Source of the DNA: a virus
Reading direction: 5' to 3' (one strand)
IMG/VR virus record: IMGVR_UViG_3300048916_000093
Span: 1 to 48,990 of that record
Length of the DNA: 48,990 bases
The position numbers and the translations under genes were made by a program. Under the pieces are notes generated by a model. It was not told the origin of the DNA. It searched no databases and saw only the letters and a list, made by a program, of their open reading frames with translations. Shown in pieces: positions 6,252 through 41,231 of the stretch (positions are counted from its first letter, which is position 1; each line of letters begins with the position of its first letter).

Positions 6252-6449
6252 CTAACTGCTATCTATCGTGATCTCGTGCCAACAAATGGCGCATTTCCAC
6301 ACAGTCAGGCAACGCCCGATTACACGATCGTCGTAATACTCATGCACGCAGAATTCGTCCGGCGAGCCCAATTCGACCTCGCCGGAGCCGTTGCAATTCC
6401 AGCAAATAATTCTCTTATCGCCCCCGCATTTAGGGCAAGGAACCATCAT
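6252..6449 (-). CDS. Small zinc-finger protein with two DnaJ-type CXXCXGXG motifs
   Basis: 65 aa: MMVPCPKCGGDKRIICWNCNGSGEVELGSPDEFCVHEYYDDRVIGRCLTVWKCAICWHEITIDSS. GAGG lies 8 nt upstream. The ATG overlaps the stop of the upstream peptide gene (ATGA). Confidence 0.6.
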   Translation of the reverse strand: MMVPCPKCGGDKRIICWNCNGSGEVELGSPDEFCVHEYYDDRVIGRCLTVWKCAICWHEITIDSS

Positions 6450-6568
6450 GGGTGGGCCTCGTAGCGGCTTATGCCGTCGAGCGACGCGCGGAAGGAGTCC
6501 ACGGCGGCGCTGATGCCCAGGATGACAACGACCGACAACGCCACCGTGACCAGCAATTTCGCGATCAT
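6446..6568 (-). CDS. 40-aa single-pass membrane peptide (below the ORF-track cutoff)
   Basis: Hand-translated: MIAKLLVTVALSVVVILGISAAVDSFRASLDGISRYEAHP. ATGA overlaps are present at both ends (6565-6568 and 6446-6449). Confidence 0.5.
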   Translation of the reverse strand: MIAKLLVTVALSVVVILGISAAVDSFRASLDGISRYEAHP

Positions 6569-6897
6569 CGTTCAAGCCGATCGTGGAGAGCGACCGCGCC
6601 GTAGAAGTGCTGCCCGCACGCGCGCTCGACGGCTTCGCCAAAACGCCTGTCGCTGCTTGCGATATATCGGCCGCCAAAGCTCACCCCGGCTTGAACCACA
6701 CCGGCCGCATTGACCGGAACGATACGGGCGCAACCGGACGCTCCCGCCGCCTTCATGACCATGACCGGCGGGCATTCGACGGAGGGCTCAAAGGGGCCGT
6801 CCGCATTGATCACGCACACCGCGCGGGCGCGTTCGGGAAGGACCGAAAGCGAGTCGCGCCGGCCCTCGTTGGAAAAGATATTCGCGATAATTCCCAT
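6565..6897 (-). CDS. Hypothetical 110-aa protein, first gene of the opposite-strand cassette
   Basis: MGIIANIFSNEGRRD... AAAGGAA lies upstream of ATG 6897. I recognise no family. Confidence 0.65.
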   Translation of the reverse strand: MGIIANIFSNEGRRDSLSVLPERARAVCVINADGPFEPSVECPPVMVMKAAGASGCARIVPVNAAGVVQAGVSFGGRYIASSDRRFGEAVERACGQHFYGAVALHDRLER

Positions 6898-6930
6898 GTC
6901 TCAATTCCTTTCGAACAAACCATGCACTGG

Positions 6931-6948
6931 CTTGACCGCACGGTCAAG
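6931..6948. promoter_or_regulatory. Perfect 18-bp palindrome CTTGACC-GCAC-GGTCAAG in a divergent intergenic region
   Basis: It presents GCTTGACCG (the recurrent -35-like motif) on both strands. It lies between the minus gene at 6897 and the plus gene at 6994. Confidence 0.6.
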
Positions 6949-8778: not shown

Positions 8779-9413
8779 TCGGTGACGAATCTCTTGGCGA
8801 GTTGGCAATTGCCGAAAGCCGGTCGTCGGGCGAGCCCCAGCCGGTCGCGTTCGATTGGTTCGCCACGGTAATCAGCCAATTCGCCAACTCGCCTATCCTC
8901 TTGAAACTGATCGGCGATTTCGCGGCGTACCTCGATTTGACAACGGATTTCGACGCGTTCTTCAAATTCTGTTGGGACGTGGATACGGCCGTTGGGTATG
9001 GGCTCGATCGCCTGGGCCGCGTCGTTGGCGTTTCGCGCGTGCTGCACCTCCCATCAACCGGGGTGTACTTTGGATTCGATCAGGCATCCGACGCAGAGCC
9101 TTTCGACCAAGCCCCGTTCTATTCGGGTGCGGCGCAATTGACGACCAACTACAACCTGGGCGACGACGCGTACCGCAAGTTGATCCTTGCGAAGGCGCTG
9201 GCGAATATCAGCGACGGTTCTATCCCGTCGATCAATCAGATCCTCATGAACCTGTTTAGCGACTATGGAGACTGCTACGTCACGGACGGCGGCGACATGA
9301 CGATGACCTATACTTTTGGCTCGACACTATCGGCCGTGGACTTCGCGATCGTCGCGCAATCGGGCGTTCTGCCCAAGCCGTGCGGCGTTGCCGCGACGAT
9401 CGTTCAACTGTAG
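8775..9413 (+). CDS. DUF2612-like baseplate/tail-fibre-associated protein
   Basis: 212 aa with an ATGA overlap. It occupies the position after J, and [20 protein letters not shown] fits my recollection of this family. Confidence 0.65.
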
Positions 9414-9422
9414 GGGTGGACC

Positions 9423-10157
9423 ATGCAAAGTAGCGATATTCCGGGCAAGCTCGTTATTCCCTTCGCGGCGTCGGCCGGCGGGGCATATATCCGCTCAATC
9501 CCGGTCAATTCGCAAATTGGCGTCACCGACGGCGCGGCTTCGCTCCACGACGGGTTCGTCCCGCTCAACGCCACTCCGATCGCGGGCGGCGGTGTCCCTC
9601 CCGATATCCGCGACATGAATGGCATCCTTAACGAGATCAGCGCTTGGACGCGTTGGCAATGCGCGGGCGGCCCGATCTTCTACGACGCGGCTTTCTCGAC
9701 AGCCAACGGCGGATATCCGAAGGGCGCGCAAGTCCTCTCCACCGTGACCATTGGTACGGTCTTCTTGTCGATCGTCGAGAACAACACGGCCAATCCGGAC
9801 GTCGATCCGACCAATTGGATTACCGTTGGCGGCTCTTTCGTCACGGGGTTTTCTTCGGGCGTTGGGTACGAAAAGCGGCCGTCGGGCATTATCGAGCAAT
9901 GGGCCACGGTCTATTTTCCCGCGGGTGGCACCGAACCGCTCGTGCCTGTTTCGTTGCTGTTCCCCTACGAGGACGCGACTTTCGGGATTTCGATCACGCC
10001 TTATTTGCTCACAGCCAACAACCGGCGCGATACGATGATGGATATCGTTCAACCCACCGACGGTAGCGGTTTCAGCGTCCAGTATCAACGCATTGGCGAT
10101 GGTGGGACGCCGGGCGTTGATGGCTTTACGTGGCGCGCCGTTGGAAAAGGAGCATAG
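9423..10157 (+). CDS. Tail fibre protein
   Basis: The conserved fibre N-terminus is present: ASLHDGFVPLNATPIAGGGVPPDIRDMNGILNEISAWTRWQCAGG...GGYPKGAQV. Confidence 0.8.
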   Translation: MQSSDIPGKLVIPFAASAGGAYIRSIPVNSQIGVTDGAASLHDGFVPLNATPIAGGGVPPDIRDMNGILNEISAWTRWQCAGGPIFYDAAFSTANGGYPKGAQVLSTVTIGTVFLSIVENNTANPDVDPTNWITVGGSFVTGFSSGVGYEKRPSGIIEQWATVYFPAGGTEPLVPVSLLFPYEDATFGISITPYLLTANNRRDTMMDIVQPTDGSGFSVQYQRIGDGGTPGVDGFTWRAVGKGA

Positions 10158-16627: not shown

Positions 16628-18946
16628 CTATCCCTTCCGGTATCTATGGCCGCGCCATCCGTCGGCCGCGCGCACTGGCCAGCCGCGCGCCCATACGTCC
16701 ACCCGCGACATTATCTCTTCGACCCGCGCAACGATCGGGTCCGGCACTCCTGGAGGTGACGCGGGGAGCCACGGTATCTCAACGACGATTTCGTCATAAA
16801 CGTGCAAGACAACGTCGAATCCCTCCCGTCGAAGCTCCCGCATGGCGTAGCGCAACAGGCAATGCGCGACGGCCTGGACGACGTTCTCGCATAACCGGCC
16901 GCCGAATGTCGACATGCGAACCCACCCGATCGCGCCATAATTCGGGTTCGTGTTGTCTGTCATATATGACAGGGACAGCTCACCTGGGCTCGCGTACTCG
17001 CGGTCGGAAGGCGCAAGGCGCGGCTCCCAATAAGTGAGGTGGCGGCCGGATGGGAGCCATATCAACAGTCGATCGGTAGCCGTCTCATAGATGAAGTGGA
17101 TATCGGGCGTGTCGGTACGCCAATCACCCATTTCGCCATTGGGGAGCATCTGGCGGAGGCGGGGCCGAATCATCGTGTCGGGGTTCTGGACCGCCTCGAT
17201 CGCCGCACCCTCCAGACCGAAGCTCTCCGCATATCCCTTCCACGGTGGCCCGCGCCATTGGCCGCCCCATAGCTCGACGATCGCGGGTGATGCGGCGCGC
17301 CAAGCCTTGATCAGGTCTTTGACTTGCTGATCGTCGAACGTGTCAGTTTCGTCGAAATTCCGCCATGCCCCAATCCAACCGCCAAAGCCCAAGGCCAACT
17401 CCGCAACCTTGCCGATATTTTGGCGGTCGGGGTGATGCTCGTCATTCTCGCGCTTGTAGCCCTCATACCATTCGACCGTCTTGCCGGTGATCTTGGCGGC
17501 CGACGCGAGATAGATCGGAATGCGATTGTGGAACGCTTCCTTACGCCATGTCTCGCCCGCCAGCTCCGCCGTGACCACGGCCTCAATCGCGCTATAGTCC
17601 GACGCTACGAGCTGCTTCCCGTCGCCGGCACAGAACAGGCCGCGCGAGCATCCGCCCACGCATAGGAGCGCGTCGCCAAAGAAATACTCGACGAGATCCA
17701 ATGACCGGTAGGCCATGATCTCCAGGACCGCGTCGACCATAGCCGGCGTCCAGAGCGGCTTGAGCTTCTTCGGCAGCGGTGCGGCGCACCACGGGCAGGC
17801 ATTATGCGTCGGGGCAAAAGGTTTGGCGCAATGATCACACGTCAAGAGTTTGGGACCTGTGCGGAGCATGTTGAGCGGTTGCGCGCCCTCGCCCGTCGGC
17901 CGCCCGGTTCTTGTACCATGGTGGACGATTGTGTTGCGGACCCGGTTATCGTTCGACGCCATGCGCTGCATCGCGAAGATTTTCTTGACGCTTGCGGACC
18001 CGACGAGAGCCCGTAGCTCGATCGCTCGGCGCGCGGGGAATATGCCGCCTGGGGGGTGCGGCGCGAGCTTCTTTAGCAGCGCTTCGACATGCTCCGCGTC
18101 CAGGCTGTTGACATAGACGTGTTGCGCCGCCAGCCATCCCTTGAGCTTCTCCAGCTCCGTAGGCTTCACGCCTCCGGTTAGCCGCTCCAGCTCTTCTCCG
18201 TAGCGCTCCAGGGCTTGGTTGAGGACGGCCGCGCAATCGTCCACGCCCTTACGGTCGATCGCGATGCCGCGCCAGTTTATCTCCTGATCGAAAAGCCACA
18301 TATCCCGCTCGTCGTCGGTCATCGGCGGCATGGCGGCGCTCGCGGCTTCCTCCGCAATCACGTCGTCGTCGCAATACTCGTAGAGGAATTCCGCGTCGAT
18401 CGGATCTTCCTCCGGATAAATCCAGGTGCGCGGGTCGTTCTTGGTCGGGTTGCGCGGAACGCTGAATTTATTGAGCAACCGCCGGCCGTCCGCGTTCTTG
18501 CGCACGGGAAGCTTTAGGACCTCCGCGAGTCGCGCGAGGCCGCCGGGCAGCGAATTGACGTGAGCGGTGGCCATGGAGCAATGAAGCTGGGCGGGGTTGA
18601 TGGGCGGGAAGCCGTAGAGCCTCATGCACACGTTGACCCAAATCATCCGCTCAAACATGGCGTTGTGGGCTTCGAGGATACCGCCAGCCGCGAGGTAATC
18701 GAAGAGCCGTTGCGGGAGCGGTTGCCCCGGCCGCCACCTCGTGACCGCTATGTCGCCGGGAAGCTTGAACGATAGGGTGAGAACGCGCGTGCTGGGGTGT
18801 TCGGAGTATGGCCCCGACCCGATGACCTGGAGGCCCTTCTTGCCCTGGGGTGCGTTGGGCGGCCCGTCCCATTTTCGGCGGGCCTCATTCCAGCAATAGC
18901 CGGCCTCGCTCGCGGTTTCGTAGTCGAAGGTTCCGTGGATAAGCAT
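16628..18946 (-). CDS. Family A DNA polymerase with 3'-5' exonuclease domain
   Basis: 772 aa. Exo I is HGTFDYET, motif A is LVASDYSAIEAVV and motif C is VLHVYDEIVVE. A Zn-ribbon-containing insertion lies before motif A. Confidence 0.9.
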   Translation of the reverse strand: MLIHGTFDYETASEAGYCWNEARRKWDGPPNAPQGKKGLQVIGSGPYSEHPSTRVLTLSFKLPGDIAVTRWRPGQPLPQRLFDYLAAGGILEAHNAMFERMIWVNVCMRLYGFPPINPAQLHCSMATAHVNSLPGGLARLAEVLKLPVRKNADGRRLLNKFSVPRNPTKNDPRTWIYPEEDPIDAEFLYEYCDDDVIAEEAASAAMPPMTDDERDMWLFDQEINWRGIAIDRKGVDDCAAVLNQALERYGEELERLTGGVKPTELEKLKGWLAAQHVYVNSLDAEHVEALLKKLAPHPPGGIFPARRAIELRALVGSASVKKIFAMQRMASNDNRVRNTIVHHGTRTGRPTGEGAQPLNMLRTGPKLLTCDHCAKPFAPTHNACPWCAAPLPKKLKPLWTPAMVDAVLEIMAYRSLDLVEYFFGDALLCVGGCSRGLFCAGDGKQLVASDYSAIEAVVTAELAGETWRKEAFHNRIPIYLASAAKITGKTVEWYEGYKRENDEHHPDRQNIGKVAELALGFGGWIGAWRNFDETDTFDDQQVKDLIKAWRAASPAIVELWGGQWRGPPWKGYAESFGLEGAAIEAVQNPDTMIRPRLRQMLPNGEMGDWRTDTPDIHFIYETATDRLLIWLPSGRHLTYWEPRLAPSDREYASPGELSLSYMTDNTNPNYGAIGWVRMSTFGGRLCENVVQAVAHCLLRYAMRELRREGFDVVLHVYDEIVVEIPWLPASPPGVPDPIVARVEEIMSRVDVWARGWPVRAADGWRGHRYRKG

Positions 18947-19019
18947 GGTTTCCCCGGCACGGTTCGAACGTGCGTTGGCGAATTCAAAGTCCGCAGTCCT
19001 ACCACTAGACGACGGGGAA
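18946..19019 (-). tRNA. tRNA-Gln (anticodon UUG), 74 nt with encoded CCA
   Basis: Hand-folded: acceptor UUCCCCG/CGGGGAA, D arm GUCU-AGUGGUA-GGAC, anticodon arm GCGGA-CUUUGAA-UUCGC, variable loop CAAC, T arm GCACG-UUCGAAC-CGUGC, discriminator A, then CCA. The terminal A is the A of the polymerase ATG. Confidence 0.85.
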
Positions 19020-27865: not shown

Positions 27866-28216
27866 ATGACCTTTCCGCTCACCTCTCCGCAACGAGCCCG
27901 CGAGCCTCGCGCCCAGCGTGCCGAACGTCGTCGCCACGAGCGCGAGGTTTTGATTCTTGACGCGGCGCTCGTGGTGGCCGAACGTGGCTCATATCTCACA
28001 ATGACCCGTCGAGACGTCGCCCGCGAGGCCGGCGTTTCCAACGGACTTATCAACCACGCGTTCGTTACCATGGACGCGCTTCGGGGGGCTGTTATGCGCG
28101 CGGCAATTGAGCGGGAGAATATTGCGATCGTGCGCCAGGGCATCGCGGCCGGCGACGATCTGGCAACCAACTGTCCGCCTGAATTGCGCGAGGCTGTAGC
28201 CCGCTCGATCGCTTAA
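27866..28216 (+). CDS. Short TetR-family-like HTH regulator (116 aa, no obvious ligand domain)
   Basis: REVLILDAALVVAERGSYLTMTRRDVAREAGVSNGLINHAFVTMDAL matches the TetR N-terminal HTH pattern. Confidence 0.65.
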   Translation: MTFPLTSPQRAREPRAQRAERRRHEREVLILDAALVVAERGSYLTMTRRDVAREAGVSNGLINHAFVTMDALRGAVMRAAIERENIAIVRQGIAAGDDLATNCPPELREAVARSIA

Positions 28217-34540: not shown

Positions 34541-37114
34541 ATGACCTTTCGCGCGCTGCGGCACGCCGTAATTCGCGCCCTGGGGGGCACGACCGACATG
34601 GCCCCAGCCGTGATCGATTATCGCAAAGGACCTCCTGTCGAACCACGCCGCGTCGCCGGCCTGGGGATGACCGATCAGGATATCGCAGACGCAACGCCGC
34701 CCGAACCGTCGGTGTCGGCCTATGCCATGCCGAAATCTCCGCCGTGGCTCCCGTCATCGGCCGGCGGCATCGCCATGGATAGCGCGGGAATGCCCCCCGC
34801 CCTCACCGCGGCGTCGCTTTATGCCTGGGCGGGCAATGGTGCCTTTGGTGAGGGCCTGGGCTTTCTGGGCTATCCCTATCTGGCGGAGCTTACCCAACGT
34901 CCCGAATATCGTCGCGTCTCCGAGATCTGGGCGGCCGAAGCGGTGCGTAAGTGGATCGAATTTAAAGGCGAAGGCGACCGGATAAAGAAAATCCAAAAAT
35001 CCTTGGAGCGCCTCAAGGTTCGTGACGTCATTCGCCACGCGATCGAGCTGGACGGTTTCATGGGTCGCGCCCAGATTTTCCCGGATCTCGGCTACCATGA
35101 CAACGACGGAGAGTTGCGCGCGATATTCGTCCCGAAGGCCAAGGTGGGCGTCGGCAAGCTCAAGGGGTTCACGGTGATCGAGCCGTTCTGGAGCTACCCT
35201 GGCTCCTACCAATCGACGAACCCCCTCGCCTCCGATTTCTACAAGCCGCGCGAGTGGTACGTCATGGGCAAGATCGTCGACAGCTCGTGGCTGATCACGA
35301 TTGTTGGGCGACCGATGCCGGACCTTCTCAAGCCAGCCTACGCGTTCGGCGGCCTCGCCCAGAGCCAAATGGTCAAGCCCTACGTGGACAACTGGCTCCG
35401 CACCCGCCAGAGCGTTTCCGACCTGATCCACTCATTCTCGACCATGGTCCTCAAGACCAACATGGCGACAATTATTCAAGGTGCGTTGGGCGGCGCGAAG
35501 AAGCTGCTTGACCGTATCAGGCTCTTCAACCGCGGGCGAGACAATCGCGGCCTCATGGCGATCGACAAGGATACGGAGGAACTCGAGAATGTCTCGACCC
35601 CCCTGGGCACGCTCGACAAGCTCCAGGCCCAAGCCCAAGAGCAAATCGCCAGCGTCGCCGGCATTCCGCTTGTCGTTCTCCTGGGCGTCACGCCGTCGGG
35701 CCTCAACGCGTCGAGCGATGGCGAGATCCGCACGTTCTATGCGACGATTGACGGCTATCTCTCGCGGGTAATCAAGCATCCGCTCCAGTACATTATCGAT
35801 TTGGTCCAGCTCGATCTTGACGGAACGATCGACCCCGACCTCACTTGGGATTTCATCCCCCTTTGGGAGACGCCCGAAGCGGAGAAGGCCAATATCCGCA
35901 AGGCCGACGCGGAAACCGATATCGCCTATTGCGCTGCCGGCGTGATCAGTAACGAAAATGTCCGAACGCGCATCACCACCGATCCGGAGAGCATCTATTA
36001 CGGGATGACTCTGGAAGAAGGCGAACCGCCGGCCGATCCGACCTTGGAAGACGATCTCGACGAGGAAGACGATCAGGAGGACGCGGACGGCGGCGGAGAG
36101 CCGGGAAAACCTAAAGGGGGCGTCACGCTCCCCAAGCTCCCTGCCCAGGATGCCCAGCCGGGCGAATTCGACGAAGGAAAGCATCCGCGCGCGCCGGACG
36201 GCAAATTCGGTTCGGGCGCTGGAGGTGGTGGCGCGCCCGCGGAGAAACCCAAGGGTGCCGTCGCGCCGGCTGTTCAATCGATCCTGGGCGACGAGGGCGT
36301 AACGCGGCTCCGCGAGCTGATCGCGGACAAGCAGAGCAAGGCGGCCGACATTATGGCCGTTCTTAAACCGCTCGACGAGGTGGGGCACAATATGACCCCT
36401 ACCCTCCCTCACGACACGACCCCGACCGATTCGTTTTGGCAAGGGCGCACCTACAGCGTCGACGGCAAGCCCGCGACGATTCAGGAGGTAGGCGAACACC
36501 TCGCGGCTACGGCCGAGCATTACGCGGGGCCTGGGGGCGTCAAGCAGCAACGCCGCGCGCGTATCCTCCTGGGGCCGCCGGCCGCCGGCAAGTCAACCAG
36601 CGCGGAAGAGATCGCGCGTCAAGGCGGCTATGCGATCGTGGACGGCGACGACGCCAAGAAGGTCATTCCAGAATTCGAGGGTGGCGTGGGCGCGAGCGCG
36701 GTTCACGAGGAAAGCTCGTATATGGCGGAAGCGGTGTTGGCGGACCAACTCAAGACCGGCAACAACGTCATTCTCCCGCTCGTGGGCGGCAAGCCGGGCT
36801 CGATCGAAAAGCGAATCAAGGTGTTGCGGGACGCCGGCTATGACGTCACCGTGGATCTCGTCGATGTTAACGAGGATGAAGCCGCGCGACGGATGGCTGG
36901 GCGCGCCATGAGGACCGGCCGCCATATCTCGTCGAGCTATTTCGCCTCGATTGGAAACGGCCCGCTCAACACCTATAATTATCTCAAGGATAAGAACCCG
37001 GATCTTGGGTTCGGAAGGATCAACGGCAATGGCGGACACAAAGAGGAACGATACGAGGAAGCCAGCAACCACCCCGACGCTACCCCCGGAAAGTCCCTAT
37101 TCGGAGGAAGCTAA
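34541..37114 (+). CDS. Portal protein (DUF1073-like) fused to a C-terminal Zeta-toxin-like P-loop kinase domain
   Basis: 857 aa. The portal body occupies about aa 1-490. An acidic/Gly linker contains KHPRAPDGKFG. The kinase-like domain has GPPAAGKST, IVDGDD and VILPLVGG. Confidence 0.85.
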   Translation: MTFRALRHAVIRALGGTTDMAPAVIDYRKGPPVEPRRVAGLGMTDQDIADATPPEPSVSAYAMPKSPPWLPSSAGGIAMDSAGMPPALTAASLYAWAGNGAFGEGLGFLGYPYLAELTQRPEYRRVSEIWAAEAVRKWIEFKGEGDRIKKIQKSLERLKVRDVIRHAIELDGFMGRAQIFPDLGYHDNDGELRAIFVPKAKVGVGKLKGFTVIEPFWSYPGSYQSTNPLASDFYKPREWYVMGKIVDSSWLITIVGRPMPDLLKPAYAFGGLAQSQMVKPYVDNWLRTRQSVSDLIHSFSTMVLKTNMATIIQGALGGAKKLLDRIRLFNRGRDNRGLMAIDKDTEELENVSTPLGTLDKLQAQAQEQIASVAGIPLVVLLGVTPSGLNASSDGEIRTFYATIDGYLSRVIKHPLQYIIDLVQLDLDGTIDPDLTWDFIPLWETPEAEKANIRKADAETDIAYCAAGVISNENVRTRITTDPESIYYGMTLEEGEPPADPTLEDDLDEEDDQEDADGGGEPGKPKGGVTLPKLPAQDAQPGEFDEGKHPRAPDGKFGSGAGGGGAPAEKPKGAVAPAVQSILGDEGVTRLRELIADKQSKAADIMAVLKPLDEVGHNMTPTLPHDTTPTDSFWQGRTYSVDGKPATIQEVGEHLAATAEHYAGPGGVKQQRRARILLGPPAAGKSTSAEEIARQGGYAIVDGDDAKKVIPEFEGGVGASAVHEESSYMAEAVLADQLKTGNNVILPLVGGKPGSIEKRIKVLRDAGYDVTVDLVDVNEDEAARRMAGRAMRTGRHISSSYFASIGNGPLNTYNYLKDKNPDLGFGRINGNGGHKEERYEEASNHPDATPGKSLFGGS

Positions 37115-37269
37115 CGAGCGACAGGTGGAATATTTGGAGGGACTTGTTTCGGGCGCGGTGCCCTCTCCCTTTTCCGGAGAAGCGGGTAAAAAGGGCTGAT
37201 AATTTCGCCGTCGAGTATTTTGCGGAGGTACTCGACACGCCGCGCCTCGTTTTCTTCATCCTGGGGCAT
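37111..37269 (-). CDS. Possible 52-aa ORF downstream of the RHH gene (doubtful)
   Basis: MPQDEENEARRVEYLRKILDGEII... It overlaps the RHH gene by 14 nt and has AAAGGAA upstream. The C-terminus is low-complexity, and its stop overlaps the portal stop. Confidence 0.3.
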   Translation of the reverse strand: MPQDEENEARRVEYLRKILDGEIISPFYPLLRKRERAPRPKQVPPNIPPVAR

Positions 37270-37411
37270 TGCCCAGTTTCCTTTCGATAGCGTCGACAAT
37301 CCACGTATTGCGATCGGGCAAGAGGCCGGCGGCCGTCATGCGCTCCAGTGTCGCCACCGGAATACGCACGAGGACCGCGGCGCGTTCGCCTTTCTTGGCA
37401 GGGTTCGGCAT
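37256..37411 (-). CDS. Ribbon-helix-helix (CopG/Arc-like) DNA-binding protein, 51 aa (below the ORF-track cutoff)
   Basis: Hand-translated: MPNPAKKGERAAVLVRIPVATLERMTAAGLLPDRNTWIVDAIERKLGNAPG. It shows the beta-strand then two-helix pattern of RHH proteins. The ATG is the 7th nt after a TAGATA -10. Confidence 0.6.
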   Translation of the reverse strand: MPNPAKKGERAAVLVRIPVATLERMTAAGLLPDRNTWIVDAIERKLGNAPG

Positions 37412-37412
37412 C

Positions 37413-37424
37413 CTTGATATCTAG
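37413..37424. promoter_or_regulatory. Operator site 1: CTTGATATCTAG
   Basis: It is identical to site 3 (39186-39197) and overlaps the -10 of the RHH promoter and the stop codon of the DUF3560-like gene. Confidence 0.6.
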
Positions 37425-37446
37425 CCTCGCGCCGCGAGGAAGGCAA
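37418..37446 (-). promoter_or_regulatory. Promoter candidate (minus): TTGCCT-N17-TAGATA
   Basis: Read on the minus strand. It would yield a leaderless RHH mRNA. Confidence 0.45.
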
Positions 37447-38083
37447 GGACCGCCTGGGCCGCCCGCTTCCCGTTCGGGGTTAACTGGCGTTGCCATGCGC
37501 CCAAGCTCGGAGCCCAGCGGAAGGCGTGGCGCTTGAGCTGGGCGATAACGTCGGGGTCAGGCTTGCCGTCGAACACGAGCTGGACGCGCTCCAGTGCCTC
37601 ATTCTCGACGTACCGGCCGCCGTCGAAGCCCCTCCCCTCCACCACGGGAGCCGCGGCGATCACCGCGCGTCGTTCGGCAAGGCGAAGCTGTTTCTCCGCC
37701 CAGGCTCGCGCTCCATTGGCGAAGTCGAGATATTCGCCCAGGCGGGCGTACTCGACGTCCATCCGCTTCCGGTTGCGATCGGCCGGGAAATTTGCCGGAC
37801 CCGTAATCATGGGGTTCGCGGTGCGCGCGCCGGCCGCCTGATACTTCGCCCACTTGGCGACGAACCGCGGGAACCACCGCATGACGAGCAAGGGAGCCTG
37901 GGGGCCGGCGGCGTGTTTGATCGCAGCGATACCGTTGAGGGCGGCGTCGACCGCGTCGTCTAAGGCCCGCTCGGCGCGCTTTCCCGGATCGAAGGTCCGC
38001 CAATTGAAGCTGGAGACGAAGGCTTCCGCGCCGCCCATCCGGGCGACGAGGCAAGCGAGGATCGGGGTGTATGGGTGTGCCAT
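37421..38083 (-). CDS. DUF3560-like protein
   Basis: 220 aa with AGGAGG 8 nt upstream. The C-terminus ERVQLVFDGKPDPDVIAQLKRHAFRWAPSLGAWQRQLT matches my recollection of the DUF3560 signature. Confidence 0.65.
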   Translation of the reverse strand: MAHPYTPILACLVARMGGAEAFVSSFNWRTFDPGKRAERALDDAVDAALNGIAAIKHAAGPQAPLLVMRWFPRFVAKWAKYQAAGARTANPMITGPANFPADRNRKRMDVEYARLGEYLDFANGARAWAEKQLRLAERRAVIAAAPVVEGRGFDGGRYVENEALERVQLVFDGKPDPDVIAQLKRHAFRWAPSLGAWQRQLTPNGKRAAQAVLAFLAARG

Positions 38084-38085
38084 GA

Positions 38086-38397
38086 TTAAGCCTCCTGGGG
38101 TTCGACGACGCGGACGTAAGGACGGCCGCCCATGGTGCTGATCACGATCAGCGCTGCGGTACGGACGTCGATCCCTTCCGCGATGTTGAGCGCCTCCGCG
38201 TGACGGTCCATTTCGTCGTAGGTGTCCGCGTGCGCCCAGTGTTCGGGGATGGGGATATATCCGGGCTCATTGGCGACCGCCACGCCCAACCGCGCCGCGT
38301 AACGCTCGCCATTGACGTTGACGAAACACCACACCTTGCCGGCGACTGCCGCGTCTAGGCCGCATTCGAAACGACCCTCAATGGTGAATTCCTTCAT
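38086..38397 (-). CDS. Hypothetical protein (103 aa)
   Basis: MKEFTIEGRFECGLDAAVAGKVWCF... It has an ATGA overlap with the upstream 45-aa ORF. Confidence 0.6.
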   Translation of the reverse strand: MKEFTIEGRFECGLDAAVAGKVWCFVNVNGERYAARLGVAVANEPGYIPIPEHWAHADTYDEMDRHAEALNIAEGIDVRTAALIVISTMGGRPYVRVVEPQEA

Positions 38398-38531
38398 TTG
38401 CCGTGTCCTTTCAAAAGAGCGTGGATCATACGTGCTTCGCGTCCGCCGACATGTGCCTTGCGGCGGGCCTGGGCGATGGCGGCTTCGACGGCCTCCGCGT
38501 TGTAGCGGGGAGCTTGGGGTTCTTTTTGCAT
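38394..38531 (-). CDS. Hypothetical 45-aa protein (below the ORF-track cutoff)
   Basis: Hand-translated: MQKEPQAPRYNAEAVEAAIAQARRKAHVGGREARMIHALLKGHGK. GAAAGGAA lies upstream. Confidence 0.45.
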   Translation of the reverse strand: MQKEPQAPRYNAEAVEAAIAQARRKAHVGGREARMIHALLKGHGK

Positions 38532-38550
38532 CAACCGTTCCTTTCGATCT

Positions 38551-38564
38551 ACTTGATATCAAGT
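38551..38564. promoter_or_regulatory. Operator site 2: perfect 14-bp palindrome ACTTGATATCAAGT
   Basis: It overlaps the -10 (TATCAA) of the minus promoter TTGACG-N17-TATCAA (38553-38581). Confidence 0.6.
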
Positions 38565-38776
38565 TATGGCTTTGCCGTCAAGCTCTTTTTCACCTGATTT
38601 CGCCAAAAATCTCGCTCGCCGCGGAGCATCTGGCCAACCGGGTTTTTCGCGTCGAACATGCGGGCGGTGCGAGTGAGATTGTCCAGGATCTCGGCCGCGC
38701 CTTCGAAACCGTGATCATTGAGCCACTCGCGCCCTTCGCGGATGCCGGCGAGGTATTCTTGCGTCACCTGGGCCAT
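38564..38776 (-). CDS. Hypothetical protein (70 aa)
   Basis: It is tightly packed with its neighbours. No family recognised. Confidence 0.6.
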   Translation of the reverse strand: MAQVTQEYLAGIREGREWLNDHGFEGAAEILDNLTRTARMFDAKNPVGQMLRGERDFWRNQVKKSLTAKP

Positions 38777-38777
38777 G

Positions 38778-38981
38778 TCAGAGATACCCGTAGAAGCGGA
38801 TACCGGCGAAAGAGCCGATCAGGTCGAGTCCTTCCAGCAAGAGTCGCCCGGTCGCGGGAACCCAATAATCCGCTGGCTGTCCGTTCCAACCGACGGTGGG
38901 CATTTCGGCCGCTTCCGCCGCGACGATATTGGTGCATTCATAGTCACGGCCAGCGTAATTGCGGTTGCGGAAGATCGGCAT
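38778..38981 (-). CDS. Hypothetical protein (67 aa)
   Basis: It has 1-nt spacers to its neighbours. Confidence 0.6.
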   Translation of the reverse strand: MPIFRNRNYAGRDYECTNIVAAEAAEMPTVGWNGQPADYWVPATGRLLLEGLDLIGSFAGIRFYGYL

Positions 38982-38982
38982 A

Positions 38983-39177
38983 TTATTTCCCCTTCGGAAG
39001 GTGACGGGCGATTTCCTCGTCGGTCATGCTGTCGAGCGCGATCAGGCAGGAACCGCCGGCCCGGAGGACCATCACGGTGCGAACCCCGTCGATCTTGCCC
39101 TTGTAGTCGCGGTGCATGGCGCGATAGATTTGATCGAGCTGCTTCTCGCGTTCCGTCTTCATGGCGGTAGTCTCCAT
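38983..39177 (-). CDS. Hypothetical protein (64 aa; more likely 59 aa from ATG 39162)
   Basis: GGAG lies 9 nt before the second ATG (MKTEREKQLDQIY...). Confidence 0.6.
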   Translation of the reverse strand: METTAMKTEREKQLDQIYRAMHRDYKGKIDGVRTVMVLRAGGSCLIALDSMTDEEIARHLPKGK

Positions 39178-39185
39178 CGGTGATG

Positions 39186-39197
39186 CTTGATATCTAG
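39186..39197. promoter_or_regulatory. Operator site 3: CTTGATATCTAG
   Basis: It overlaps the -10 (TAGATA on the minus strand) of the island's first promoter. Confidence 0.6.
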
Positions 39198-39203
39198 TGT
39201 AAG

Positions 39204-39215
39204 CTTGATATCAAG
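39204..39215. promoter_or_regulatory. Operator site 4: perfect palindrome CTTGATATCAAG
   Basis: It overlaps the -35/spacer of the minus promoter TTGACT-N17-TAGATA (39191-39219). Its centre is 18 bp from the centre of site 3. Confidence 0.6.
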
Positions 39216-39306
39216 TCAAGAGGGAAAATGCGCCGACGAGAAAATTCCTTGAGGCCCTGCGGCCAAACCGGTACGCTGGGGCTTCCTGGGGTGAGGGTAT
39301 TTTGAA

Positions 39307-39696
39307 ATGACGCTCGTAACCGCAAATCTCATCGTCGTGAAAGACCCGGAAACCGGGATAGTTCGGGAGGCGATGCCTGTAACGAACCCCGACGGCAGTC
39401 TTGTAGGCGGCGGTGGGGGCGGCGGAGGCGGCGCGGGACCAACCGTTACCGATTACAGCGCCGTCTTAACCGGGGCTAGCGACACGATCGTTACGGCGGG
39501 ACAAGCCGCTCATTACCTCGCTATTCAGAACCCAACCGGCAATGCCGACGTCACAGTCAATATCGCGGGCGGCGACGCCACCACCGGCGGAATCGTGCTG
39601 GTAGCGGGCGGTTCGCTCACCATAGACTTCGGGGTGGCCAATGCGGTCACGATCGCAGGCACGGCCGCTCAATCTGTTATCGTGTTCGCCGGCTAA
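39307..39696 (+). CDS. Hypothetical virion-module protein with a Gly9 run
   Basis: 129 aa. It contains SLVGGGGGGGGGAGP and ends in VIVFAG. Confidence 0.6.
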   Translation: MTLVTANLIVVKDPETGIVREAMPVTNPDGSLVGGGGGGGGGAGPTVTDYSAVLTGASDTIVTAGQAAHYLAIQNPTGNADVTVNIAGGDATTGGIVLVAGGSLTIDFGVANAVTIAGTAAQSVIVFAG

Positions 39697-39708
39697 AGGA
39701 TTCAAAAT

Positions 39709-40353
39709 ATGGGCATCAATAACCCCACCATCCCATTCAATCCTATCCCCAACCCGGTCGCGGTAACTAGCGCGACGGTGCCGGTGGACTTGGACCCCAA
39801 CGTGCGTTTCTATAACGTCACGAGCGGCGGTACGGCCGGCGTCGAGGGCCTCAACATCAACGGCCCCGCGGTGGAAGATACGGGCGTCAACGCCGCTTAC
39901 GTCGGGCAACGGATGGTGGTTTATTTTCTCTCCCGTACCGACAATGCCGATCGTGTCCACATGTCGCACAACACGTTCGAATATTTCGCCGTTTACGCGA
40001 ACAGCAATAATGCGAATATTGGACCCCAGGCCGTCAATCCGATCGTATTGACCAATGAGGGTGATTTCGCGACATTCGTTTTTACCGGGTATTACTGGTA
40101 TTTCGACTATTTCAACTCGAATGTACCTTTCACCACGGTTGAAAACGACGTCAATTTGCAGGGCGATTTTGGCGGAAACGTCAACATCACCGGGGGCTAT
40201 ACGGGAAGCACCGCGGGCGGCGACGTCATCATTCAGGGCGGGTCCGGTACTAGCGTTGGGCTCGTCAAGATGCCCGCGCTTCCCACGGCCGACCCTCACG
40301 TATTGAACGCGCTTTATCTGTCGGCCGGGGCCTTGATGGTTTCCGCCGGGTAA
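39709..40353 (+). CDS. Hypothetical virion-module protein (fibre-like C-terminus)
   Basis: 214 aa with AAGGA upstream. The C-terminus is LPTADPHVLNALYLSAGALMVSAG. Confidence 0.65.
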   Translation: MGINNPTIPFNPIPNPVAVTSATVPVDLDPNVRFYNVTSGGTAGVEGLNINGPAVEDTGVNAAYVGQRMVVYFLSRTDNADRVHMSHNTFEYFAVYANSNNANIGPQAVNPIVLTNEGDFATFVFTGYYWYFDYFNSNVPFTTVENDVNLQGDFGGNVNITGGYTGSTAGGDVIIQGGSGTSVGLVKMPALPTADPHVLNALYLSAGALMVSAG

Positions 40354-40358
40354 AAACG

Positions 40359-41231
40359 ATGGCCGACGATAAGCCACGGTCGCAAATCGGCGGAGTGCGC
40401 GTCACCGCTCAAGGCAAGCGGCTATTCGAGCGTGTTCGTGCCGCGGGCAAGCCGGTCGATCTCAAGGCCGTCCGTCCGTCGGCCGCGATCAGGGCCGACT
40501 ATCAAGCGCGCCTGGACAAGCTCGTCGACGACATGAACGCCAGTATCGTCTATTGGATCTCTGCGCGGTATCGAGCGAACCCGCCGGCCGCCCTCGCCAT
40601 GGACGCAAGCCCCGCCGAAGAGTTGCGCCGCGCGGTGCGCCGGCTCTCGCGACGGTGGCAACGGCGATTCGCGGAGTTGGGGCCGAAGCTCGCCGCATAT
40701 TTCGCCCAGGACGTCGCCAATCGAGTCGACGCGGATTTGAAGAAGGCGCTCAAGGACGCAGGCTTCACGGTCGATTTCAAGCTCACGCGCGCCCAGAACG
40801 ATGCTCTAGCCGCGACCGTCAACGAAAATGTGGCGCTGATAAAAAGCATTGGCCAGCAACACTTTACGCAAGTTGAGGGCTACGTCATGCGCGCCGTCCA
40901 AGCGGGTTCTGACCTAGGCACGCTGGCGAAGGAGCTGGAGGCCGGCTACGGTATTACGAAGCGTCGCGCCCAGAATATCGCGCGCTCTCAAAACTTTATG
41001 GCCAACTCGACCATGGTCAAGGTTCGCCAGCGCGAATTGGGCATCACCAAGGCGAAATGGCTTCACAGCGCCGGGGGCAAAACGCCCAGGCCGGAACATG
41101 TGGCATTTTCGGGTAAACTCTACGACGTCGAAAAGGGCGCGTTCCTTGAGGGAAAATGGACTTGGCCCGGCCGCGAGCCCAATTGTCGGTGCGTTTCGAT
41201 CAGCGTAATTCCGGGGCTTGAGGACCGTTAA
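40359..41231 (+). CDS. Head morphogenesis protein, MuF / SPP1 gp7-like
   Basis: WLHSAGGKTPRPEHVAFSGKLYD...WPGREPNCRCVS is the MuF family signature. Confidence 0.8.
   Translation: MADDKPRSQIGGVRVTAQGKRLFERVRAAGKPVDLKAVRPSAAIRADYQARLDKLVDDMNASIVYWISARYRANPPAALAMDASPAEELRRAVRRLSRRWQRRFAELGPKLAAYFAQDVANRVDADLKKALKDAGFTVDFKLTRAQNDALAATVNENVALIKSIGQQHFTQVEGYVMRAVQAGSDLGTLAKELEAGYGITKRRAQNIARSQNFMANSTMVKVRQRELGITKAKWLHSAGGKTPRPEHVAFSGKLYDVEKGAFLEGKWTWPGREPNCRCVSISVIPGLEDR

Follow-up and report, generated by a model that had tools for sequence, protein, structure and literature searches.

The 48,990-bp viral stretch analysed here (IMG/VR record IMGVR_UViG_3300048916_000093, corresponding to the whole of JGI metagenome contig Ga0496112_0000120 and referred to as the window) carries a leftward array of eight small open reading frames (ORF1 to ORF8; positions 37111-39177, minus strand) that, judged by comparison with related phages, is an insertion in a variable cargo slot between the portal and MuF genes. 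We modestly favor the interpretation that this island is a self-contained, repressor-controlled accessory (moron-type) cassette, occupying a lineage-specific portal-MuF hotspot and carrying early cargo repressed by ORF7. A first-pass annotation of the window had proposed a candidate anti-defence or host-takeover locus; the cargo slot, the presence of its own promoters, and the Aca-like design fit that proposal, but none of the products matches a known anti-defence family. The island does interrupt an otherwise rightward late block as had been described, and all eight minus-strand ORFs are present. Its position between portal and MuF also stands, yet two plus-strand ORFs (39307-39696, 129 aa with a glycine run; 39709-40353, 214 aa) separate it from MuF.

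The slot was delineated using a comparison set of 10 IMG/VR phages (L090-L099) with portals 44-48% identical to that of the window over the first ~500-570 residues. In all 10, the portal gene is followed directly by MuF or by one to two co-oriented small ORFs and then MuF, and no match to any island ORF was detected in these phages. Compared to this set, the window possesses ~4.2 kb of extra sequence, made up of the portal-fused kinase domain, the island itself, and both plus-strand ORFs. A closer relative, L110 (TerL 45%, portal 48-68%, and MuF 46% identical), has a kinase-bearing portal and a leftward island in the same slot, sharing with the window the double operator of promoter P1, promoters P2 and P3, and ORF1, 3, 4, 6, 7, and 8. 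The gene order in L110 is a new 50-aa gene, the ORF3 homologue, a DUF8317 gene, the ORF1 homologue, a new 76-aa gene, and the homologues of ORF4, ORF6, ORF7, and ORF8, such that ORF2, ORF5, and the two plus-strand ORFs are missing and three other genes are present. A further relative, L106, retains ORF6, P3, ORF7, and ORF8 behind yet another upstream gene. Because L110 and L106 keep promoters and operators beside shuffled genes, the control skeleton is constrained while the cargo turns over, and the suggestion that related phages might reveal a variable cargo site was borne out by the differing cargo of L110. Neither of the plus-strand ORFs occurs in L110 or in any other relative examined; they have no family match and are further slot cargo. 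That the island moves as a unit together with distant ORF6 homologues was rejected, as 80 viral loci and 80 genomic ones carrying such homologues yielded neither a further island gene nor an operator. Amongst GenBank phages there was no DNA similarity to positions 36500-40500 of the window.

Three predicted promoters and a recurring palindrome, CTTGATATC(A/T)AG, provide the control skeleton. The palindrome had been noted previously over each of three promoters and is confirmed, though in four copies rather than three (37413-37424, 38552-38563, 39186-39197, and 39204-39215), all of which lie over a -10 or a -35 element. Four copies compare with 0.12 expected by chance, none occur in the window outside of the island, and the palindrome is absent from 832 kb of unrelated loci bearing ORF6 homologues. 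As for the designation of the promoters as sigma70-like, a strict scan for Escherichia coli sigma-70 promoters detects none in the minus-strand direction, since each -10 hexamer has A as its last base, while the composite pattern TTGNCN-N17-(TAGATA or TATCAA) has exactly three matches in both strands of the window, all at island sites. P1 (39186-39219, minus strand) has a -35 of TTGACT (39214-39219) and a -10 of TAGATA (39191-39196) with a 17-nt spacer and carries two operators, a distal CTTGATATCAAG (39204-39215) that overlaps the -35 and a proximal CTAGATATCAAG (39186-39197) that covers the -10. P2 (38552-38581, minus strand; -35 TTGACG, 38576-38581; -10 TATCAA, 38553-38558) has its operator CTTGATATCAAG (38552-38563) over the -10, as does P3 (37413-37446, minus strand; -35 TTGCCT, 37441-37446; -10 TAGATA, 37418-37423) with the operator CTAGATATCAAG (37413-37424). 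The ATG of ORF7 lies 7 nt past the P3 -10, and a leaderless mRNA is therefore predicted.

The -35 elements, the 17-nt spacing, and the operators are kept in L110 while the flanking bases differ. At the P1 of L110, the -35 and both palindromes are identical and the 6-nt spacer between the palindromes differs (CTTACA vs TGCGGC), while its P2 retains the -35, the spacing, the operator, and the ATCGAAAGGAACGG leader that follows, despite a different upstream gene. P3 is kept in L110, L106, and L109, the last of these a contig bearing a phage fragment (see below). P1-P3 are predicted to be active promoters. A terminator-like hairpin for leftward transcripts, identified by consensus match only, falls inside the 3' end of the portal gene (36994-37012, minus strand), and no Rfam family was found within the island. 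Scans for the double-operator pattern returned four unrelated low-GC chance matches from metagenomes and nothing from viral sequences.

The operators probably have a locally encoded regulator, as they are confined to the island and the P3 operator is always accompanied by ORF7 in the relatives that have it. ORF7 (37256-37411, minus strand; 51 aa) is most likely this regulator, a candidate ribbon-helix-helix (RHH) repressor of P1, P2, and P3, in line with the earlier description of an island that ends with a small regulator. The RHH label assigned to ORF7 is weakly matched by a strand-helix-helix-like layout, but not by any RHH model. In the AlphaFold2 model, residues 1-18 are extended and followed by helices at residues 19-27 and 34-47 (block-mean pLDDT 61 over residues 1-10, 84 over residues 11-20), and amongst six small homologues R10 and R16 are invariant. 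A match to the NCBIfam family YlcI_YnfO_N (NF041551; 17.3 bits, E = 0.0036) falls under the 30-bit cut-off for ORF7 itself; six of the seven members of the ORF7 family match this model, with a best E-value of 4.4e-5, which suggests a distant relationship to YlcI/YnfO, a family for which no function was found in the literature. Using hhalign, the ORF7 family aligned in register with the RHH region of Aca14 (P = 0.0012-0.0016, probability 16-19%) and, more weakly, also in register, with Mnt (P = 0.014), NikR (P = 0.017), and Arc (P = 0.019), while omega reached only P = 0.1 and Aca1 gave no alignment; all reference sequences except that of Aca14 were entered by hand. Non-RHH controls had P ≥ 0.32 and shuffled sequences reached 0.016 in 6 of 120 cases. 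Taken together, we consider it likely that ORF7 has an RHH fold. Metagenome scans with an ORF7 profile returned nothing.

A 683-bp contig, L107 (1-683), from a relative with a MuF 70% identical to that of the window, has an ORF7 homologue (58% identical) alone and divergent from MuF, with no cargo genes and no CTTGATATCAAG. A -10-like TAGTCT is positioned 6 nt before its ATG, so a leaderless mRNA is again predicted, and this homologue differs at two predicted DNA-facing strand positions (A12->F and L/V14->T). The joint loss of palindrome and strand residues speaks for ORF7 as the protein that binds the operators.

The remaining genes are small and tightly coupled, as originally reported, with neighbors either 1-2 nt apart or overlapping by 4 or 14 nt. 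Gene calling in the source record identified seven of the eight, missing only ORF8, and three of the ORFs are shorter than 60 aa, not two as first counted. GC content by codon position (third position, GC3, above first above second) offers clear support for ORF1, 2, 3, 5, and 6, modest support for ORF4 and ORF7, and weak support for ORF8. ORF1 (38983-39177, minus strand; GC3 0.82) is 64 aa as called and probably starts at 39162, giving 59 aa, based on a GGAG Shine-Dalgarno sequence and the L110 homologue, which aligns from residue 5; homologues are present in the L110 island (76% identical) and in two IMG/VR contigs (43-58%). ORF2 (38778-38981, minus strand; 67 aa) is an orphan with no relative in scans of genomes and viral contigs. 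ORF3 (38564-38776, minus strand; 70 aa) is a recurring moron-type gene, 66% identical to its L110 counterpart, with homologues in L199 and L200 that occur alone, on the opposite strand, and at other head-module junctions; the L200 copy has a strong promoter, TTGACA-17-TAAGAT. ORF4 (38394-38531, minus strand; 45 aa) is basic, probably helical as judged by eye, and the best conserved of the island proteins (85% identical in L110), with weak matches only, to DUF7185 and phrog_922.

ORF5 (38086-38397, minus strand; 103 aa) belongs to a small protein family, present in mobile elements, with about 20 homologues, one of which is in a conjugative-element region with ArdC, Tad2-like/RadC, YAcAr, SSB, and TraG, while further relatives sit in small-ORF arrays. 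It has no family match and no PDB match by sequence or profile, and scans of genomes and viral contigs with ORF5 and ORF2 revealed no shared neighbors. ORF8 (37111-37269, minus strand; 52 aa) has a proline-rich tail, with overlaps of 14 nt at the end of ORF7 and 4 nt at the portal stop. Scans of Pfam, PHROGs, NCBIfam, and PADLOC gave no family for it, but it is probably real, because the ORF persists in L110, L106, and L109 with indels that keep the frame and a shared core (YL..(I/L)..GEI..PF). A word-indexed protein search with concatenated ORF1, ORF2, and ORF3 recovered one relative of ORF3 and missed the three query proteins themselves, which the collection contains, such that its negatives for very short proteins are untrustworthy.

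ORF6 (37421-38083, minus strand; 220 aa) was the only one of the eight proteins with a significant match in the family scans, aligning to the C-terminus of phrog_19458 ('primase'; 7.8e-28). Its start is probably at 38083, since residues conserved amongst homologues precede the start used by the gene caller. The AlphaFold2 model (pLDDT 90.6) shows an N-terminal domain that is long and helical, followed by a small alpha/beta domain at the C-terminus, and over 655 homologues were identified, mainly in sphingomonads. The first-pass annotation had called ORF6 DUF3560-like, and in this case the C-terminal domain and overall fold are shared with DUF3560-domain proteins but the Pfam model PF12083 is not matched (no ORF6 match at E ≤ 10 and none in 25 homologues), so that membership in PF12083 proper was rejected. 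A genuine DUF3560 member, Xanthomonas WP_274508742, matches PF12083 at 8.8e-38 over residues 4-125, and residues 148-220 of ORF6 align by hhalign to its residues 191-263 (98.4% probability, E = 7e-15), outside of the Pfam domain. Foldseek against BFVD identified a DUF3560-domain phage protein (E = 4.8e-8; TM 0.54 over 298 columns). No PDB relative was detected by sequence or profile, Foldseek against PDB returned only non-specific helical bundles, and no catalytic or DNA-binding domain was recognized.

The association of this protein type with plasmids and integrative and conjugative elements (ICEs), as was proposed from the sequence, is supported: tblastn with ORF6 matched 260 plasmids, 189 of them conjugative, with some of the matched proteins annotated as DUF3560- or ArdC-domain, and the C-terminal domain occurs in plasmid DUF3560-/ArdC-domain proteins adjoining SSB, ParB, and relaxase genes. 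The same domain is also present in FP_Toutatis and Maintenon phage proteins annotated as primase. In sphingomonad prophages, full-length relatives have Lar, Dam, HNH, and Acb2/Tad1-hairpin genes as neighbors within early/accessory arrays. No function for DUF3560-type proteins was described in the literature found.

If the island operates as the favored cassette, host sigma-70-type RNA polymerase would fire P1-P3 on incoming DNA, leftward against the late genes, and ORF7 would likely be made from a leaderless P3 transcript. The cargo (ORF1-6 and perhaps ORF8) would likely act early on host defence or physiology, and accumulating ORF7 would bind the operators as a dimer and, like Aca proteins, repress P1-P3 once a burst of expression has taken place. 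With early timing and an anti-defence role predicted for its cargo, the island is a good but unproven candidate for an anti-defence or host-takeover locus, and the relatives of ORF3, ORF5, and ORF6 occur in accessory regions of other mobile elements. Several observations weigh against this interpretation. Scans of Pfam, PHROGs, NCBIfam, and PADLOC, a set of libraries without a dedicated anti-defence collection, linked no island product to a known family of anti-CRISPR, anti-restriction, or defence proteins, and the genomic context of the cargo relatives amounts to guilt by association only. The -10 hexamers lack the usual final T and are not picked up by the strict sigma-70 scan. For the regulator, no RHH Pfam model matched ORF7 or its six homologues, no PDB sequence matched, Foldseek against PDB was uninformative for a 51-aa model, and the similarity to Aca14 is marginal. 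The operators could instead be bound by ORF4, given its 85% conservation, or by a TetR-family protein encoded at 27866-28216, and since the ORF7 homologue of L107 sits in the slot without cargo, ORF7 may act beyond cargo control.

The parallel that had been drawn with acr-aca operons holds for the inverted repeats over the cargo promoters, but not for the cargo, amongst which scans of PHROGs, Pfam, and NCBIfam revealed no homologue of a validated Acr or anti-defence protein. Such operons are located in the head-morphogenesis region of Mu-like Pseudomonas phages (e.g., JBD30), and they similarly combine small variable cargo genes with a small autorepressor that follows, have a fixed slot in the head-gene block with content that varies between relatives, and place inverted repeats in a strong early promoter, comparable to the repeats over the island promoters. 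They also differ, with Aca1 being a helix-turn-helix protein and the operons being co-oriented with the head genes, served by one promoter, and loaded with cargo that is proven anti-CRISPR. A similar comparison can be made with phage morons: the island has autonomous units with their own predicted promoters between genes that are adjacent in relatives, its content is variable, and ORF3 homologues behave as single-gene morons elsewhere. Classical morons are usually one prophage-expressed gene, while the island groups several genes under shared operators, together with a candidate regulator, in a phage without detected lysogeny genes.

Two further systems offer documented points of comparison. 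Aca14 is an RHH regulator that represses its own and a neighboring operon through inverted repeats over the -10 (bioRxiv 10.64898/2026.07.27.740549), with one regulator controlling several units because the same repeat occurs at neighboring promoters. The island likewise encodes a small RHH-type candidate regulator with small accessory genes and has a conserved inverted repeat over the -10 that recurs at neighboring promoters. It differs in a GC-flanked 12-bp operator, CTTGATATCAAG, as opposed to the AT-rich 20-bp TGTATATGTAAGCATATACA of Aca14, in having no matched acr gene, and in its three promoters, a regulator mRNA predicted to be leaderless, and a direction that runs against the neighboring genes; with an hhalign probability of only 16-19%, ORF7 is not demonstrably of the Aca14 family. 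The design of the island matches that of Aca-controlled loci, as demonstrated in experiments for Aca proteins and, for an RHH regulator of more than one operon, for Aca14, while membership is not established. The leading regions of conjugative plasmids are enriched in anti-defence and establishment genes (PMC11541004), and the island approaches the leading-region islands of plasmids and ICEs, which include DUF3560 proteins (PMC11541004; PMC6965323), in the match of the ORF6 C-terminal domain and fold to plasmid and phage DUF3560-domain proteins and in the ORF5 relative amongst ArdC, SSB, and TraG genes. The homology of ORF6 lies outside of PF12083, however, and island expression is predicted from double-stranded DNA with sigma-70-type promoters and not from single-strand promoters.

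The portal gene (34541-37114, plus strand; 857 aa) encodes, fused to the portal C-terminus, a Zeta_toxin/AAA_33 P-loop kinase domain (36557-36961, plus strand; 1.2e-14) and is convergent with ORF8 and ORF7. The kinase part has no counterpart in L090-L099, as the matches between portals extend only to residues 498-573 of 857, while the 899-aa portal of L110 has it, and the kinase domain and island were acquired together. The C-terminus of the L090 portal bears another extension, of ~160 aa, suggesting that these portals carry polymorphic C-terminal domains. Polymorphic toxins of the MuF type occur in phages, and the window resembles them in having a toxin-like domain on the C-terminus of a head-morphogenesis protein with small genes right after it, with the difference that the kinase is on the portal and not on MuF. 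A possible intein or homing element is a ~1 kb insertion in the L099 portal gene (9008-10080), flanked by matches to residue 396 and to residues 388-573 of the window portal. In two other assemblies, possibly of one sample (L108, 4695-5852; L109, 40-1197), a ~1.15 kb L110-like phage fragment with the same junctions splits a type I hsdM gene that adjoins hsdS, OGG, and GmrSD genes. The fragment contains residues 123-220 of ORF6, the P3 operator, ORF7, ORF8, and the kinase domain starting at its P-loop, and the possibility that it represents an independent ORF7-ORF8-kinase module was rejected as it is cut inside ORF6 and the P-loop strand of the kinase.

The kinase raises two alternatives to the favored cassette. 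The omega-epsilon order of pSM19035 is an RHH gene followed by a gene for a small protein, and the RHH-like ORF7 followed by the small ORF8 next to a Zeta-type kinase domain mirrors that order. ORF7 could therefore be read as an omega-like regulator and ORF8 as an epsilon-like antidote of the portal kinase, protecting the producing cell or timing a virion-delivered kinase, with ORF1-6 as unrelated later cargo. The co-occurrence of Zeta domain and island in the window and L110, with neither in L090-L099, and the retention of ORF8, which abuts the kinase-gene end, wherever sequence reaches that far are consistent with such an arrangement. Yet ORF8 matches no family in any library scanned and has no detectable epsilon similarity, the omega similarity of ORF7 is weak (P = 0.1), the genes are convergent with the kinase such that kinase, antitoxin, and regulator are not in one operon as in an omega-epsilon-zeta system, the L107 homologue of ORF7 apparently has neither a Zeta-type neighbor nor ORF8 on its short contig, and the seeming stand-alone module of L108/L109 is a phage fragment; we regard this explanation as quite unlikely. 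We consider it improbable as well that the insertion of ~4 kb was acquired as one infection-establishment module of portal kinase, leftward island, and two plus-strand ORFs. In such a module the kinase would ride the virion on the portal and act on the newly infected cell, the island would fire at once from host-type promoters to supply new anti-defence proteins, including the DUF3560-like one, ORF8 would later neutralize the kinase, and ORF7 would then shut the cassette off.

Other explanations concern the cargo. The island could aid replication, recombination, or protection of entering DNA, with ORF6 as a DNA- or replisome-binding factor; its C-terminal domain is that of phage proteins annotated as primase and of plasmid proteins adjoining SSB, ParB, and relaxase, and the island is co-oriented with the DNA-polymerase module. 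Against these points, ORF6 has no recognized catalytic or DNA-binding domain or PDB relative, the phage has a separate and complete replication module, and relatives dispense with the island, so that a role in genome establishment is unlikely while still deserving some weight, and in practice it overlaps with an anti-defence role because plasmid leading-region genes do both. We give a low probability to the genes being defence, superinfection-exclusion, or lysogenic-conversion morons that serve the carrier cell: the autonomous sigma-70-type promoters with a local repressor would be those of classical morons, and ORF6 relatives are frequent in sphingomonad prophages, but PADLOC gives no match and the phage has genes of its own for DNA polymerase A, a primase-polymerase, and a helicase, with no integrase, CI-type repressor, or partition genes amongst the scanned proteins. 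It is very improbable that the eight ORFs encode conserved head-module proteins, whether of the virion or of its assembly. Only the location between portal and MuF would point in that direction, and it is contradicted by their absence from ten relatives with otherwise collinear head genes, by the opposite strand and the variable content and order in L110, and by ORF5 and ORF6 relatives in plasmids, conjugative elements, and prophage early regions.

The structural genes of the window are of the E217/Pam3/XM1 myovirus type, and the phage is probably a virulent sphingomonad myovirus; the ORF6 homologues point to a sphingomonad host (Rhizorhabdus, Sphingobium, or Novosphingobium). Sister samples contain near-identical contigs of 48.9-49.0 kb with different start points. 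Within the replication-gene block there is a tRNA-Gln (anticodon TTG; 18946-19019, minus strand), and the TetR-family regulator noted above is directly upstream of the primase-polymerase gene with no island palindrome nearby. A second leftward mini-island (6252-6947) lies within the tail module and encodes a 110-aa DUF8317 protein, a 40-aa ORF, and a 65-aa CxxCxGxG zinc-ribbon protein, with a promoter that bears another palindrome, TTGACCGTGCGGTCAA (6932-6947). The L110 island between portal and MuF contains a DUF8317 homologue (36% identical), which suggests an exchange of cargo between the two islands.

Should the island prove to be an anti-defence or takeover locus, six to seven uncharacterized small proteins would become candidates, and the new operator-regulator pair could serve as bait for further loci of this kind in alphaproteobacterial phages, in which almost no such loci are known. 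The slot is a natural place to search for further cargo because L110 keeps the control skeleton with shuffled cargo, and the co-acquired portal kinase suggests that polymorphic effector domains may be carried by portals as well as by MuF proteins. DUF3560-type proteins are present on hundreds to about a thousand conjugative plasmids, to which ORF6 ties a phage accessory island, and if the infection-establishment module were to be true, this plasmid-borne group would gain its first function.

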